Below, one piece after another: positions 19,326-35,965 of a stretch of DNA of 39,502 bases. Position numbers and translations under genes: made by a program. The first letter of the stretch is position 1, and the number at the start of each line of letters is the position of its first letter. This stretch comes from Flavobacteriaceae bacterium (GTDB lineage Bacteria; Patescibacteriota; Minisyncoccia; Phycocordibacterales; UBA1006). The stretch is taken from assembly GCA_047614005.1 (NCBI GenBank), contig JBLHIK010000003.1:1-39502 (forward strand). Reading direction: 5' to 3'. The notes under the pieces were generated by a model. It saw only the letters and a list, made by a program, of their open reading frames with translations. It had not been told where the DNA came from and ran no database searches.

Positions 19326-19432
19326 GTTTGAGAATTTTTAAGGTTCACAATATACAGCATGTATATATAAAAAGTATTATACTCTTTTTATATAAAAACT
19401 CAATAGAAAGAGCTTTGCTCTTTGTGTCTATT

Positions 19433-19537
19433 TTAAAACAACAAAAAATACACTTAGGTGTCTTTTCTTAAAACAACAAAAAACACACTTAGGTGTCTTT
19501 TCTTAAAACAACAAAAAACACACTTAGGTGTCTTTTT
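19433..19537. repeat. Three tandem 35-bp repeats of the tRNA-Cys 3' trailer hairpin
   Basis: ttaaaacaacaaaaaa(c/t)acacttaggtgtctttt starts at 19433, 19468 and 19503, with another copy at ~19731..19766. Confidence 0.9.
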
Positions 19538-19539
19538 TG

Positions 19540-19689
19540 AGGTACGGGGATTCGGCCACCGTTTTGGAGATTTTTACGAATTAGAAATTCGTAAAAATAT
19601 CTCAAAACCTCGACCCCGTCGCCTCATCTGCAATTTCGCCAAAGGCTCAATGCAGTAAATTCGGCTTTCTTCGAATCCCGCCTGTACCA
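19540..19689 (-). repeat. tRNA-Cys-associated structured element
   Basis: Bounded by aggtacggggattcg and ttcgaatcccgcctgtacc, inverted copies of the tRNA-Cys 3' end. Core shared with the Trp and Leu elements. Confidence 0.8.
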
Positions 19690-29648: not shown

Positions 29649-31439
29649 TCATTGCTTTTTTATATTTTCTGTACCAAACCATTCAGTTATTTTAATCATT
29701 GCCGAATCTCCCATTTGAGAAAGAGCTAAAACAACTAAATTTTCTTTAGCCCTAGAACAAGAAACATAAAACAGATTTTTAGTTCGTAACTTCCTGTGTT
29801 CTTTGTCATCTGTGTCATTAAAGAATTTTTGGAAATCATATTTTGCAACCCAACTTGTATCATCAATTACAACCAAAACATTTCTATATTCTTCTCCTTT
29901 TGTTCCGTGCTTTGTAGAGTATGATGTTTGCTCTTGAATGTGTTTAAAAGCACAAATCATTTCATTATAATTGGTAAGCATTAATGTTTCATAGAATAGT
30001 TTATTTTTAGTTGCTCTTTTTAACTCTTCTTCATCACTAATAGTTGAGACATCTATAGCTATCTTTTCTAAAAATTTTTGTAATTTTCTAGAGGGAAGCG
30101 ATAACTTATTTTCTTGGCAAAAATTAAAAACATCTTGGATTGTTCCAGTCGTTCTTAAAGTTGTTAATTCTTTTAATTTATTTTCTATTTCTTGTTTGTC
30201 TGAATGTTTAGTTAGAGAGCTAAAAACACCTTGTTGTTTTAGATACTTTATAACTCTGTTATAATTTTTGTCCGCCCAAAAAGAAACTAAATGTTCAATT
30301 CCTGTTTCTCGTTCACTAGAGTTTTTTTTGTCTTTAGAACCAAAGAAGTAAGACGAAAAATGATTTTCTCTATTTAATAATTCAGTTTTAGGGTCATAAA
30401 ACCTTTTTGAATAAGTTTTATATAGATTTCCAAAACCTGCTCTTTCTGCAACTTTGCTATTTGCAATTATTAGAATCTTGTCATCACCTGATTCTGAAAA
30501 GTCCCAACCTTCTGCGTCTAATCTTGTAATAATACTGTCATAGTCTAAATCTTTTTTAGGTGCTATTCTCGCTCGATAAGGTGCACCTTTTTCTTTTGGA
30601 TTCCTTGAAGCATTTGTACAATTAATAAATTGAACGCTTCCATCAATACTTTCTTTACTTTCAGGTATTGTTTGAGTTATATTATCTCGAATGTTATTTA
30701 ATAGATTAACAACACTTTCGGAAGAACGATAATTGTCGTCCTTTGTCACAAGTTCAAGCTTGTTTGAATCAATATAAGGTTGTAATGAACCAATACCAGT
30801 GTCGTAAATTTTTTGATAAGAATCTCCATAGAAACCAACTAATAGTTTCGCTTTGTTTCTTTCAAGTAGATAACTTACAATCGCATCAACAGTTTCACTA
30901 GCAGTATCTTGATATTCATCTATAAATAAGTAAGGATATTTTTGGCCTAAAATATGAGTTAAGGATGTATAGTTTTTAAACATTCGTAAAGACAAAGTTA
31001 TTACATCATCATGATGAAGACTTCCTTGTTCAAAATCTCTATAACCACTATCATCATAAGTAACTTCTTTAATTCTATCTTTTAATCCAGTTTTGTATTT
31101 ATCTGGCTTATCAATAAGCATAGCTTCATTTAATAAATCCAATTGGATTATTAATTGTTTGTTGAATCTTTTGATGCAATCCCATAAAAATTCGTGAATG
31201 GTAGAGACAATGACTAAAGGATTATTTTCAAGCCTTTCAATAATTTCATTTTTTGCTACATTAGTATATGTAATACAAACAATTTTTTGATTGTTTAACT
31301 TGATACTTTCTCCTTTTGTTTCTAAAACGTGATTTATCGTTTGAATTAAAGTATATGTTTTTCCTGAACCTGCTCCAGCTTCAAGTACATAACTTTTATT
31401 TTCTTCTATATGTTCTATTATTTGTTCTATAGCTGTCAT
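29649..31439 (-). CDS. gajB: UvrD-like helicase, Gabija GajB-type
   Basis: VLEAGAGSGKT, CITYTNVA, STIH, FIDEYQD, GDSYQKIY, NYRS, TKHGTKGEEY and LFYVSCSRAK motifs. Starts 1 nt after the OLD nuclease stop codon. Confidence 0.8.
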   Translation of the reverse strand: MTAIEQIIEHIEENKSYVLEAGAGSGKTYTLIQTINHVLETKGESIKLNNQKIVCITYTNVAKNEIIERLENNPLVIVSTIHEFLWDCIKRFNKQLIIQLDLLNEAMLIDKPDKYKTGLKDRIKEVTYDDSGYRDFEQGSLHHDDVITLSLRMFKNYTSLTHILGQKYPYLFIDEYQDTASETVDAIVSYLLERNKAKLLVGFYGDSYQKIYDTGIGSLQPYIDSNKLELVTKDDNYRSSESVVNLLNNIRDNITQTIPESKESIDGSVQFINCTNASRNPKEKGAPYRARIAPKKDLDYDSIITRLDAEGWDFSESGDDKILIIANSKVAERAGFGNLYKTYSKRFYDPKTELLNRENHFSSYFFGSKDKKNSSERETGIEHLVSFWADKNYNRVIKYLKQQGVFSSLTKHSDKQEIENKLKELTTLRTTGTIQDVFNFCQENKLSLPSRKLQKFLEKIAIDVSTISDEEELKRATKNKLFYETLMLTNYNEMICAFKHIQEQTSYSTKHGTKGEEYRNVLVVIDDTSWVAKYDFQKFFNDTDDKEHRKLRTKNLFYVSCSRAKENLVVLALSQMGDSAMIKITEWFGTENIKKQ

Positions 31440-31440
31440 T

Positions 31441-33486
31441 CTAATCGTTTTTAGCTAACCAAATCAAACCTTCATTTATATATTCTGGAACTTTCCATTT
31501 GCCATATTTCTTTTCATCAAATGACATAATATCAAATGTGAATTCTGTTTTTTGTTTAGATGTAAACTCATCAGGTATTTCTTTAGAAATATCTTTGTTT
31601 TTTAGATACGAAAACTCATTTTTAATGACTAGATTTTCTTCTCCGTCCTCAATATGTTCAGATAAAAAAAACTCTTTATTTGTATTTATAAAAGCATCTT
31701 CAAAACTTCTTGCGTTAAAACCGTTTTCATTTGTTTGATAAGAGACACAGATATTATCCTTTATTTTTTCTTTAACTTTACAACTTGTTAACTCTGAAAT
31801 AGTTGTCTTACTTGGTAACCATTTTATTAAAGTATAGTTTGTAGTAAATTCGCCAACATCAACTTTACATTTTCTAGTTTTCTTTTTTTCTCCGTCTTGG
31901 TATTTTTGTGCAGAATCAATATCTGTTATTATTAATGTTCTAACATTAATAAACTCTAACATTTCTTTGAATGAATGTGCATAAGCTCCACCAACTTCAA
32001 GTATAGAAACATACTCATTGCATAATAAATTCGCAGATTTCTGTATCATTTGTGGTAAAAGCATACGTTCGGTTGTTCCTTCAACCAATATAACTTTATC
32101 AGCAAAAAATAAATCAGATTTATGAAGCGTTAAATATTGCCTTAAAAATCTAAAAGTTCGTTTATCATTTTTAATTTCTAAATTATTAAAATCTTGATTT
32201 GTTATTTTGAACCCAGTTATAGTTGGTAATCTATTAAAATACCTAATTCTATTAAACCCTTTTTCTGTGTCAATTCCTGATTCTGACAGAATATGTGAAG
32301 AATGTGTTGTGATAATTACTTGTATTTGTATATCAGTATCCTTTTTAGCGTCTTTTACGAGTTCTGAAACTTGACTGATAAAGACCTGTTGCATTTGAGG
32401 ATGCATATGAGCTTCGGGCTCTTCTATAAGCACTACAAGGAAATTTGATAGCTTTTCTTCTTTTGAGTTTTTAAACTTCTCAATAAAACTTGCTAACTCT
32501 AAAATCATATAAATTAGATTGCTATAACCAAGTCCATTATAACTTTCAGGTAAATCTATTTCATCTTGTTTGTAAAGATATTGGATGTTGTTTTTTATAA
32601 TTTTTTCAGAATCAAATTTTGAATCAATTATTATTGGTGGAATTGTAATTGGAGTTTTTGCTCCAAATTTTTTAAGTTTTGTTTGAATACTTTTAAGTAC
32701 TTTATTGTAGTTAATTTTTAAATCTTCTGATACTAATTTAAGAGCAGTTTCTAATTCAATTACATCTTTATGGTCTTTATCTCTTTGATTATAATAATTA
32801 GAAAACCCAAGAGATAAAGCATTGTTAGAATCACCTTTTGTGTCATCTAAAATTCTCATTGCTTTAATACTTTCAAAAAGTACTACTTTTTGAATTTTAG
32901 TTTTAAAGCTATCTTCGATTTTTCTATTAAAATCAGATTCTTTATCAATAGCATAGCAAACAGTTTCGTATAAAAAATTTATGTTTTTATGCAGATATTC
33001 TATTAATTCAATTGTTTTATCTTCTCTGTTTTCAAATGATTGAAATACCTTTAAAGTGTTTTTTGGTTCAAAAGAAATGCAAATTGTAGCATCATTTCTA
33101 GCATCCTCTAAATCAGTAATAAATTCACTAAGCTCAACTAATGATTCATTATCTGCTTTATTGTACTCGATTTCAAAATTGATTTTAATTTTTGGAACTT
33201 CAACTATTAATTGTTTTTCAAGTTCATTACGCTCTTCTTCTGAAATTCCTTTTTTCTTGGATTTTAAATATGTACTATGAACAGCTTTGAAAACAGCATA
33301 AGAACTTTGAGAAAAGTCCTCAAAAATAAATTTTCCATCAGTAGAAGTAGCCAATTTTATTGCTTCAAAAAAAGAAGTTTTTCCTGTGTTATTTTTTCCT
33401 ACAATTAGCGTTATATCGTCTTCTAAATTACAAATCACTTCCTCTAAAAGGCGAAAATTTTTAACTTCTATTTTTTTTATTTTCAT
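31441..33486 (-). CDS. gajA: OLD-family ATP-dependent endonuclease (ABC ATPase plus TOPRIM), Gabija GajA-type
   Basis: KNFR, VGKNNTGKTS, GLGYSN, IEEPEAHMHP, TTHSSHI, FFADKVILVEG..E and TDID motifs. Start at MKIKK, 6 nt after TATAAT. Confidence 0.82.
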   Translation of the reverse strand: MKIKKIEVKNFRLLEEVICNLEDDITLIVGKNNTGKTSFFEAIKLATSTDGKFIFEDFSQSSYAVFKAVHSTYLKSKKKGISEEERNELEKQLIVEVPKIKINFEIEYNKADNESLVELSEFITDLEDARNDATICISFEPKNTLKVFQSFENREDKTIELIEYLHKNINFLYETVCYAIDKESDFNRKIEDSFKTKIQKVVLFESIKAMRILDDTKGDSNNALSLGFSNYYNQRDKDHKDVIELETALKLVSEDLKINYNKVLKSIQTKLKKFGAKTPITIPPIIIDSKFDSEKIIKNNIQYLYKQDEIDLPESYNGLGYSNLIYMILELASFIEKFKNSKEEKLSNFLVVLIEEPEAHMHPQMQQVFISQVSELVKDAKKDTDIQIQVIITTHSSHILSESGIDTEKGFNRIRYFNRLPTITGFKITNQDFNNLEIKNDKRTFRFLRQYLTLHKSDLFFADKVILVEGTTERMLLPQMIQKSANLLCNEYVSILEVGGAYAHSFKEMLEFINVRTLIITDIDSAQKYQDGEKKKTRKCKVDVGEFTTNYTLIKWLPSKTTISELTSCKVKEKIKDNICVSYQTNENGFNARSFEDAFINTNKEFFLSEHIEDGEENLVIKNEFSYLKNKDISKEIPDEFTSKQKTEFTFDIMSFDEKKYGKWKVPEYINEGLIWLAKND

Positions 33487-33855
33487 ATCTCTATTATACA
33501 TCACAATAAAATATATTATAATAAAAAAACCTTTTTAATAAGTTTTTTTTATTTTTATGAAGTTTTCTGTAGTCTCAAAGAATCACTTGAACTCTCAACC
33601 TGTATGAGGTAAATAGTAATCAAACAAAAAAGAGCCCTCGTAGAAGTACTCTTTTTTTCTTATGCTTCTCGAGCGCTCACACTAGCGCTCTCTATTGTGA
33701 CACAAGTCACTAAATATAATTTTTTGCTTACGCTCAAATTCTACGTAAGTGCTCACAACCCCATCTCGCTGTTTTTCTTTTTAGTGAAAAGAAAAAAATA
33801 GCTCCGACTTCACAAAGCTAAAAAAGTAAAATAGTTTACTTTTTTTACGCTTTGT

Positions 33856-33927
33856 GACCCTACAGAGAATCGAACTCTGATTACCAGATTGAGAACCTGG
33901 TGTCCTAACCGTTAGACGATAGGGCCA
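33856..33927 (-). tRNA. tRNA-Glu (CTC); ends approximate to within 2 nt
   Basis: GGCCCTATCGTCTAACGGTTAGGACACCAGGTTCTCAATCTGGTAATCAGAGTTCGATTCTCTGTAGGGTCA. Confidence 0.93.
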
Positions 33928-34434
33928 ATTATTTATGTATTGTATTTAGATTGCTCTAGTCTTACAAGATAATTCTCAATTGAGAACCTAACCTATTTCA
34001 TCATGCTCATGACTTCGCATAGATGAAATTCCTTCGGAGCGGAGAAAATATAAAACTATTTATATTTTCTTCCTAACCGTTAGACGATAGGGCCAATTAT
34101 TTATGTATTGTATTTAGATTGCTCTAGTCTTACAAGATAATTCTCAATTGAGAACCTAACCTATTTCATCATGCTCATGACTTTGCATAAATGAAATTCC
34201 TTCGGAGCGGAGAAAATATAAAACTATTTATATTTTCTTCCTAACCGTTAGACGATAGGGCCAATTATTTATGTATTGTATTTAGATTGCTCTAGTCTTA
34301 CAAGATAATTCTCAATTGAGAACCTAACCTATTTCATCATGCTCATGACTTCGCATAAATGAAATTCCTTCGGAGCAGAGAAAATATAAAACTATTTATA
34401 TTTTCTTCCTAACCGTTAGACGATAGGGCCAATT
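33903..34434 (-). repeat. Tandem array of 168-bp units (three full plus a partial) containing tRNA-Glu 5' fragments
   Basis: tcctaaccgttagacgatagggccaatt starts at 33903, 34071, 34239 and 34407. Units differ by only a few SNPs. Confidence 0.95.
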
Positions 34435-34516
34435 GTATTTTATTATAAAGAAATGCAATATAAATACGATACCACTATACATTATTCTTCTGTAATTTAA
34501 AACACCTATATCTATT

Positions 34517-34591
34517 CTAGCTACGCTCAATCATCTTAATCTCTTCCCCATTCACGCCATACAATCCGTATACCATCTGATCGATTTCTTC
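34517..34591 (-). pseudogene. C-terminal remnant of a type IIG/Eco57I-like restriction-modification protein
   Basis: Minus-strand frame reads EEIDQMVYGLYGVNGEEIKMIERS*, matching the typical IDxxVYxLYGLTxEEIxxxE tail. An in-frame stop lies just upstream. Confidence 0.6.
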
Positions 34592-34727
34592 AATATCATA
34601 GGTTTTTGAGTTTACTATCTAACCCCAAACAATACTCATAAATGGATTGATAGTATTGAAAAAAAGAAAATTATATGAGTTTAATCTTCCATGAGGTGTT
34701 TTTTCTATGATCATAGGTTATAATACT
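34591..34727 (+). repeat. ~136-bp direct repeat ending in a TATAAT -10 box; copy at 35830..35965
   Basis: caatatcataggtttt...ctatgatcataggttataatact occurs at both positions. Confidence 0.9.
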
Positions 34728-34784
34728 ACCTGTACTAGCCATGACAATCACAGAAAAACTCACAATCATACAAACAATTTTTAC

Positions 34785-35282
34785 ATGATTACTTTTACAA
34801 AAAAAGAAAATTCTGATCAACAAGAATCAGAAAAAACTCACATTAAAACTAAAGCTCAAGAAGAAGCTGGAAATCTTGCAATATTAGACACAACAGTAAA
34901 AAAAACGGTGTCTGCTTTTCATGGGCTTATCGTCGCGATGATTATGTTATCCGTAGTTATATGGCTCTTTGTATACGTCTTCTGTTTTGTTGAGGATTCT
35001 TGCGAATCATTAGTAGCGATAGGTGGTGTATTTATGATTTTAGCTTTTTATCTCTCTTATATTGTAAATAAAGTAAAAAAGACCACCAACTACTTAGAAA
35101 TCAAAAAGAGTTTAAATACTCTCTTTTTAATTCTTATTCCTTTTTCTTTATTTATAAGTATGCTCATGATTGTGGGTTCAATATTAGGAATCATAATGTT
35201 TCTAACTTTTATTATGTTATCAATTCGTGCGTTTAAATTCTATAGAGCATTTAATTACGCAAAAAGAAATAATCTTATATAA
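34785..35282 (+). CDS. Four-TM hypothetical membrane protein, paralog 1
   Basis: MITFTKKENSDQQESEKTHIKTKAQ...AFNYAKRNNLI; tandem paralog of 35287..35784. Confidence 0.75.
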   Translation: MITFTKKENSDQQESEKTHIKTKAQEEAGNLAILDTTVKKTVSAFHGLIVAMIMLSVVIWLFVYVFCFVEDSCESLVAIGGVFMILAFYLSYIVNKVKKTTNYLEIKKSLNTLFLILIPFSLFISMLMIVGSILGIIMFLTFIMLSIRAFKFYRAFNYAKRNNLI

Positions 35283-35286
35283 AAAT

Positions 35287-35784
35287 ATGATTACTTTTGA
35301 AAAAGAAGAAAATTCTGATCAACAAGAATCAGAAAAAACTCACATTAAAACTAAAGCTCAGAAAGAAGCTGGAGATCTTGAAGCGCTAGATAAAATAATA
35401 AAAATAATAATATCTGTTTTTTATTGGCTTATTGCAACTATGATTGCACTAGCTATAATTATATTGTTTTTTTCATTTGTACTCTATTATTTTGATGAAT
35501 CTTATTCACGAGGAGTAATAGCAGGTGGTGCATTTATGATTTTAAGTTTTTATCTTTTTTATCTTACAAGTAAAGTAAAAAAGATCACCAACTACTTAGA
35601 AATCAGGCACAGACTGAATATTCTTTTTTTTATTTTTATTCCTTTTTCTTTTTTTATGTGTATTCTTATAGTAATGATTCCAATAGTAGGACTCATAATG
35701 TTTACAATATTTATTATACTACTAATTCATACGACCAAATTCTATAAAGCATTTAATTATGCAAAAAGAAATAATCTTATATAA
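35287..35784 (+). CDS. Four-TM hypothetical membrane protein, paralog 2
   Basis: MITFEKEENSDQQESEKTHIKTKAQ...AFNYAKRNNLI; 502-bp period relative to paralog 1. Confidence 0.75.
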   Translation: MITFEKEENSDQQESEKTHIKTKAQKEAGDLEALDKIIKIIISVFYWLIATMIALAIIILFFSFVLYYFDESYSRGVIAGGAFMILSFYLFYLTSKVKKITNYLEIRHRLNILFFIFIPFSFFMCILIVMIPIVGLIMFTIFIILLIHTTKFYKAFNYAKRNNLI

Positions 35785-35829
35785 AAATATGATTACTTTT
35801 ACAAAAAAAGAAAATTAAAATAGACAAAC

Positions 35830-35965
35830 CAATATCATAGGTTTTGGAGTGTACTATCTATCCCAAACAATACTCATAAATGGATTGATAGTATTGAAAA
35901 AAAGAAAATTATATGAGTTTAATCTTCCATGAGGTGTTTTTTCTATGATCATAGGTTATAATACT
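35830..35965 (+). repeat. Second copy of the 34591..34727 promoter repeat
   Basis: Direct sequence match. The -10 box sits 6 nt before the SOUL ATG. Confidence 0.9.

Follow-up and report, generated by a model that had tools for sequence, protein, structure and literature searches.

REP elements are short hairpin repeats that carry no gene, and copies of them bracket the cognate RAYT gene. The attL/attR scars of tRNA-targeting integrative elements are laid out so that the target tRNA is split and restored and the displaced fragment is left beside it. In Escherichia coli, each of the tRNA-linked repeats (TLRs; tyrT repeats/rtT, rrA/rrB/rrF) contains a stretch of 18-19 bases that exactly matches the 3' end of the gene just ahead of it, and their function is described as largely unknown (PMC8144298). 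For the RAYT/TnpA-REP context, processing of single-stranded DNA by the enzyme has been described (PMC6006769). Short hairpin insertions that are not introns have been published in the 23S rRNA genes of CPR bacteria, in a report whose text does not mention tRNA (PMC11270868).

We analyzed a 39,502-nucleotide (nt) stretch of DNA (the window) in which a tandem array precedes an intact tRNA-Glu(CTC) gene, each unit holding displaced pieces of that tRNA around a three-hairpin core. Like the TLRs described (PMC8144298), the array consists of tandem units (one to five in TLRs) by a tRNA or rRNA gene, and each unit exactly reproduces a short stretch of a gene end. TLRs, however, are found downstream and reproduce the 3' end; the array unit is found upstream, reproduces nt 1-24 and 29-39 on either side of the core, and has a fold-back. 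Like REP/REPIN-RAYT systems, the element is a multicopy noncoding hairpin with tandem forms that is likely handled as single-stranded DNA by an enzyme acting in trans. Unlike them, the core interrupts RNA genes that have a replacement copy next to them, its strand follows transcription rather than replication, the RAYT-like gene of this genome is flanked by different palindromes, and a single-sequence query of low sensitivity found Y1 at 0 of 78 core loci. With att scars it shares the restored target gene and the retained displaced fragment; it differs in having no adjacent integrase or cargo, in the loss of 2-4 bases, in the fold-back copy, and in targets that include 23S rRNA and protein gene ends. 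The element thus resembles TLRs, REP elements, and att scars and departs from each in a defining property.

Structure of the array

The host genome (598 kb in 30 contigs, 91% complete) has 33 tRNA genes. The features of the array are as follows, all on the minus strand of the window.

33854..33926, minus: intact tRNA-Glu(CTC) gene
33903..34434, minus: tandem array, 3.2 x 168 bp (TRF)
34263-34430, 34095-34262, and 33927-34094, minus: array units, with a 28-nt direct repeat at their borders
34407..34430, minus: displaced tRNA nt 1-24 of unit 1 (outermost), exact copy
34239..34262, minus: displaced tRNA nt 1-24 of unit 2, exact copy
34071..34094, minus: displaced tRNA nt 1-24 of unit 3, exact copy
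34328..34406, minus: three-hairpin core of unit 1 (covariance models)
34160..34238, minus: three-hairpin core of unit 2 (covariance models)
33992..34070, minus: three-hairpin core of unit 3 (covariance models), with the ATAGG end seen in most family members
34043..34070, 34211-34238, and 34379-34406, minus: hairpin 1, an AT-rich perfect stem of 12 bp with a 4-nt loop
34030..34038, and again at +168 and +336, minus: hairpin 2, the CCGAAGG mini-hairpin with a GAA triloop and C-G closing pair (sequence)
33995..34029, minus: hairpin 3 with a tandem G-A internal motif (fold)
33973..33989, and again at +168 and +336, minus: tRNA nt 29-39 (anticodon loop) folded back, a 14-nt palindrome
33939..33967, 34107-34135, and 34275-34303, minus: sigma-70-like site TTGTAA-17-TACAAT (consensus match only)
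34437..34464, minus: promoter-like site outside the array, upstream of all its units (consensus match only)

The original prediction, made from the sequence alone, was of a 168-bp tandem array, and TRF bore it out at 33903-34434 (period 168, 3.2 copies, 98% matches, score 1043). The three units do lie directly upstream of the intact gene, as had been read: exact copies of tRNA nt 1-24 occur at -168, -336, and -504 relative to it, and exact copies of nt 29-39 at -63, -231, and -399. No copy of the T-arm was found in the array units, again in agreement with the earlier reading. Each unit is made up, in order, of nt 1-24, the core of about 80 nt, nt 29-39, which fold back at the anticodon, and a spacer resembling a promoter, with a sigma-70-like site of its own 12 nt ahead of the next tRNA start. 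Units differ from one another at unit positions 54, 73, and 79 only, and the 28-nt direct repeat at their borders consists of 4 flank bases plus tRNA nt 1-24.

Details of the original prediction needed revision. The start of the unit had been taken as the 5' acceptor strand and D-arm; nt 1-24 are indeed copied exactly, but the piece stops one base short of the full D-stem. Where two hairpins per unit had been described, three are present, the middle one being the TCC-GAA-GGA mini-hairpin. Folding one unit, the check that had been suggested, gave a structure better than shuffles (z of -4.2 as RNA and of -4.1 and -4.9 as DNA). In the predicted unit fold, the anticodon is paired inside a stem and not displayed in a loop. 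The unit had no match or fitting family in Rfam.

Several known classes were considered and rejected. For a group I or group II tRNA intron, there was no Rfam intron match, and the unit lacks nt 25-28 and 40-73, so that exons could not be joined into a complete tRNA. For a T-box or attenuator, Rfam gave no T-box or leader match and the array has no terminator-like site inside it. For a GIY-YIG tRNA cassette, the window has no GIY-YIG open reading frame (ORF) between fragment and intact tRNA. As judged by eye, the arms of an integron attC site (GTTAGG/CTAAC boxes) are not complementary and the TTC copy is without GTT; a box C (RUGAUGA) is likewise missing from the TTC copy. A full tandem inversion duplication fits only imperfectly, as the inverted piece is no more than 7-22 bases long.

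Behind tRNA-Glu lies a decayed 3'-type element (33700-33853, minus) that has a further A-rich/T-rich hairpin and repeats a short part of the tRNA 3' end; 37 bases there also match the flank of tRNA-Glu(TTC). A model of the array as the mirror image of such 3' elements was rejected as well, the GA motifs of both types being on the tRNA sense strand. The internal-loop motif of the unit had been said to recur in the Trp, Cys, and Leu elements of the window; GAGC/GCGAA is present in Cys and Leu(TAG) and only degenerate in Trp. Neither covariance model matched these elements, which therefore share a motif with the array but not the core. A 35-bp tandem repeat (19419-19548) behind the tRNA-Cys element derives from the tRNA-Cys 3' flank.

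The surroundings hold further features. A GajA/GajB (Gabija) pair lies just downstream of tRNA-Glu(CTC) (29649-33504, minus; PADLOC E values of 1e-171 and 6e-155). Two tandem paralogous membrane protein ORFs spaced by 502 bp are bracketed by a 104-bp exact repeat (34591-35965), and a 33-bp tandem repeat of about 12 copies lies within an ORF (269-763). A 33-codon open stretch (34520-34618, minus) resembles the C terminus of type IIG restriction-modification enzymes; it had no NCBIfam match.

Distribution of the core

In the host genome, 5' cassettes stand at 6 of the 33 tRNAs, namely, Glu(CTC), Glu(TTC), Val(TAC), Ile(GAT), Ser(GCT), and Leu(CAA). The core before tRNA-Glu(TTC) is identical to that of the window at 71 of 80 bases, and the anticodon piece and fold-back of this cassette match tRNA-Glu(TTC), not CTC. 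Since they match their own tRNA, we infer that these pieces were copied from the local target. The core also occurs at the 3' end of topA, where the last ~75 bases of the gene are duplicated behind it.

A search for similar cassettes in relatives, also suggested at the outset, was productive. With the first covariance model, 7 of 55 genomes of the family proved to contain the core. A core-only model, R2, was built from 13 sequences and has two-sided changes at 12 of its 16 pairs; it matched 57 of 150 genomes of the order at an E value of ≤0.005 and 46 at ≤1e-4, this genome included. In a phylum-wide sample, matches at ≤1e-4 were obtained in 2 of 101 genomes, again counting this one. The presence of the core is patchy, and the layout seen in the window recurred at 1 of 29 other tRNA-Glu loci. 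Patterns for the exact junction, which proved too narrow, gave four matches in genome contigs, three of them in contexts other than tRNA and one (L034) identical in sequence to L014 and therefore counted once; among 401 genomes of the order, they matched only this one. The core pattern had no match in viral contigs.

We surveyed 69 loci, taken best matches first and making up about half of those listed. In 36, at tRNA 5' ends of eight isotypes, a 5' fragment, the core, and a tRNA follow one another; the core lies behind a tRNA in 12, before a tRNA without a clear fragment in 5, in 23S rRNA in 5, and with no tRNA within 500 bases in 11, among them the ends of rpsI and rny. At none of the 69 was a tRNA found solely on the other strand, although one locus (L163) looked antisense by eye. 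At the rpsI end (L112:1501-1594), the final codons of the gene (W-S-K-R-stop) are supplied by the left arm of hairpin 1, and the former gene end lies behind the element. Two loci of one genome (L005 and L048, G053) have 5' tRNA-Glu fragments, that of L005 being split by a GC-rich hairpin; its anticodon arm matches the other Glu isoacceptor, which suggests exchange between tRNA loci.

No description of the element was found in the literature searched, which covered few subscription papers, and the core, common in one large order of reduced-genome bacteria, is likely an uncatalogued mobile element. The insertions published in CPR 23S rRNA genes may include the 23S site found here (PMC11270868). 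When the hairpin 1 left arm was profiled from 58 non-23S cores, the native 23S site ranked among the best 1% of positions at 22 of 28 loci; the arm may have been taken from 23S rRNA, or the 23S site may be targeted by its likeness.

Junctions and fold-back

Comparison of loci showed that the core enters tRNA genes behind a GG/AGGA site, in the D-loop or the D-stem. Past the insert, the interrupted copy continues from nt 27-29, with 2-4 bases lost, and it is always accompanied by an intact tRNA, which lies downstream of it (the arrangement in the window), lies upstream of it, or sits within the hairpin 3 loop. Of 36 loci, 15 had a fold-back that could pair with the tRNA of the same locus, versus 2.4% of 1066 control comparisons, and the other 21 had none. 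Flank duplications of at least 5 bases occurred at only 6 of 26 loci. No same-species pair of empty and filled alleles was seen.

A screen of 91 loci revealed 14 in which a tRNA starts right after hairpin 2, and in 13 of those (Gln and Leu-TAG) the loop of hairpin 3 consists of the intact tRNA. In this nested form, the front of the old tRNA copy stands before the core and its rear after the right arm of the core, the rear remnant beginning at nt 27-29 in the six best-kept loci. This arrangement indicates that the core inserts into a tRNA gene and interrupts it close to the junction of D-stem and anticodon stem, with the loss of a few bases.

Folding and strand of the core

In counts inflated by related loci, the perfect mini-hairpins of 68 cores had GNA triloops in 19 cases, versus 7 on the opposite strand, GNRA in 5, and UUCG in none, and GCGAAGC occurred 21 times. 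The core alignment, from which the structure itself was derived and whose pair counts related loci likewise inflate, held 44 two-sided changes and 1 G-U in 205 paired cells. Around the tRNAs of this genome, the flanks have 18 mini-hairpins in sense and 4 in antisense orientation, with 2.6 expected. The sense strand folds slightly better in 62 of 68 cores as RNA and in 61 of 68 as DNA. Mini-hairpins of this type have far greater stability in DNA than in RNA, according to a report that also describes CCGAAGG in the single-strand initiation signal ssiA of RSF1010 and mini-hairpin DNA in the phage G4 origin (PMC13037366). Hairpin 2 of the unit is the CCGAAGG described there for ssiA, with only 7 bases shared. 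The sequence patterns favor a core that would act as folded single-stranded DNA.

The core follows the transcribed strand even at a head-on tRNA (Val-TAC, contig C13, uniform skew). Lagging-strand targeting is described for IS200/IS605 (PMC6006769); the orientation at the head-on gene argues against it here, and a role as RNA would fit that orientation as well.

Proposed origin of the array

The explanation we prefer, with a probability of roughly 65%, is that each unit is the truncated front of a spare tRNA-Glu carrying a gene-less mobile three-hairpin insert of about 80 nt and that the three copies arose by later tandem amplification and are functionless. The core would enter after GG/AGGA in the tRNA D-loop or D-stem and the copy would resume at nt 27-29, as the compared loci show; the intact tRNA would stay downstream, upstream, or nested in the hairpin 3 loop, in the three positions observed. 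The locus-complementary fold-back, itself a recurring pattern, would suggest that DNA synthesis switched template at the local target. The core may fold on the non-template DNA strand, where an enzyme acting in trans, most likely an HUH/Y1-type or GIY-YIG nuclease, would cut and join. Unequal recombination or slippage at the 28-nt direct repeats would then give three to four copies, and the expansion itself is probably neutral.

GIY-YIG genes and candidate enzymes

Among 105 flanking ORFs of 54 loci, no member of the transposase, integrase, or reverse transcriptase families and no 23S-IVP family member was found; one GIY-YIG was. The single-sequence query of low sensitivity that returned no Y1 found GIY-YIG at 1 of the 78 core loci, and among 13 metagenome loci one had a GIY-YIG gene, on the opposite strand. 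No integrase was found among the 15 window proteins scanned, and the sole PF00589 gene of the genome sits on another contig. The genome does encode, both away from the array, a RAYT-like protein and a small GIY-YIG protein, either of which could act in trans on the core. The RAYT-like gene passes the Pfam Y1 cutoff and scores 27, versus 80 for NF047646. It adjoins a tRNA cluster (L053:1285-1869, contig C2), and its flanking TTTCACGTGAAA palindromes are unrelated to the core.

The GIY-YIG genes allow another origin, in which the unit would be the gene-less remnant of a selfish GIY-YIG cassette that duplicates a tRNA front and the hairpin core would be a later passenger in the dead copy. Four of the 29 GIY-YIG loci of the family lie less than 500 nt from a tRNA, and two (L084, Leu; L096, Asn) have a 5' fragment, a hairpin, a continuation, a GIY-YIG ORF, and an intact tRNA, but their hairpins are GC-rich and unlike the core. 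At L133, a duplicate tRNA-Thr copy holds both the core and a GIY-YIG ORF; this ORF, however, has its own inverted repeats at a different site. A stretch of 52 bases directly behind the stop codon of the small GIY-YIG gene (contig C16) matches window positions 34457-34508 at 88%, yet the window contains no GIY-YIG remnant (best E value of 0.53), and the nested, 23S, and protein gene forms require no such cassette. We consider this origin unlikely. In the duplicate tRNA-Thr of L133 (1105-1800), the two inserts are nested, the core being in the D-loop and the ORF near the T-arm, and a perfect 7-base tandem repeat of about 11 copies (L133:1030-1105) directly precedes tRNA-Thr.

Possible expression of the units

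A strong promoter-like score was obtained for 21 of 25 cassette-free tRNA-Glu genes. At the cassette loci, such a score fell outside the cassette at 11 of 26 and inside it at 5 of 26, in a comparison biased against inner sites by their short spacers; in the window array, the inner and outer sites score equally. Cotranscription of the units with the tRNA, or read-through into it, is plausible from these sites, and RNase P, whose RNA is present in the genome, would free the intact tRNA from any read-through leader. In the predicted best fold of a unit-plus-tRNA transcript, displaced nt 1-7 pair with the 3' acceptor strand of the tRNA, a modeled pairing that is possibly a cost or a control point.

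This pairing is in keeping with another reading, in which the unit would adjust the output of tRNA-Glu as a functional RNA leader, through acceptor-strand competition, or as a promoter multiplier, through one added promoter per unit. Nested forms are necessarily cotranscribed, the core strand follows transcription, and the stronger promoter of relatives is usually outside the cassette, all of which would suit such a role. Against it, the layout is absent at 28 of the 29 other tRNA-Glu loci examined, Rfam yields no match, the loops are of the DNA type with almost no G-U pairs, and the core is found at unrelated gene types. The attenuation leader offered in the original prediction gained no positive support, given the missing Rfam match and the patchy presence. 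A function as an output-tuning leader or promoter multiplier is in our view quite improbable.

Copy number and probable tandem amplification

In public run X1, the repeat collapsed to one 198-nt contig (168+30) with a depth of 28.8, versus 7.2-8.7 in neighboring contigs. The ratio of 3.3-4 suggests that the array holds three to four copies, contig depth from a run that is possibly the source sample being a hint and no direct copy number. Perfect or near-perfect tandem forms recur as 3.1 x 161 at a 23S site, as 2.1 x 151 and 2.1 x 184 at tRNA-Glu(TTC), and as 2.1 x 170 at tRNA-Ser in this genome, in a comparison in which two loci (L219 and L224) possibly come from one organism. Although the assembly is from short reads and no contig spans the array, a real cassette whose threefold repetition is an assembly artifact is very unlikely; the depth of the collapsed contig, the three positions that differ among units, and the tandem forms known in other genomes all speak against it.

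The integration scars of the original prediction came closest among the earlier readings, except that repeated integration had been supposed. One insertion with subsequent tandem amplification accounts for the array better than three integrations would, given units that are 98-99% identical and have the 28-nt direct repeat at their borders, a repeat on which slippage or unequal exchange could readily act. Neither MutS nor ExoVII turned up in this genome, a weak negative at 91% completeness. The earlier proposal of tRNA fragment decoys, taken here as units processed so as to titrate anticodon nucleases or other tRNA-binding proteins, to which the cognate anticodon-loop sequence and the adjacent defense locus would lend themselves, is extremely unlikely, with an anticodon paired in a stem and not in a loop, many family members that end before the anticodon or sit in 23S rRNA or at the ends of rpsI, rny, and topA, and a neighbor that matches GajA/GajB and no anticodon nuclease.

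Implications

Beyond the truncated tRNA-Glu front with its mobile insert, the core could represent a previously unrecognized class of selfish DNA without genes. It would fold on the non-template strand where genes are highly transcribed, serve as its own priming or nicking signal, insert in essential tRNA, rRNA, and protein genes while making a replacement through local fold-back synthesis, sometimes take the functional tRNA along as cargo in hairpin 3, and have captured hairpin 1 from 23S rRNA. We put this forward tentatively, as a rather improbable whole. In the genomes concerned, the element creates pseudo-tRNAs, contig breaks, and rRNA insertions, which matters for annotation. It repeatedly breaks essential genes without their loss, and its fixed junctions, locally copied fold-back, and nested tRNA provide a defined substrate of about 80 nt for finding the enzyme. 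The element also offers a route to study site-directed insertion with built-in gene rescue and without an encoded transposase.
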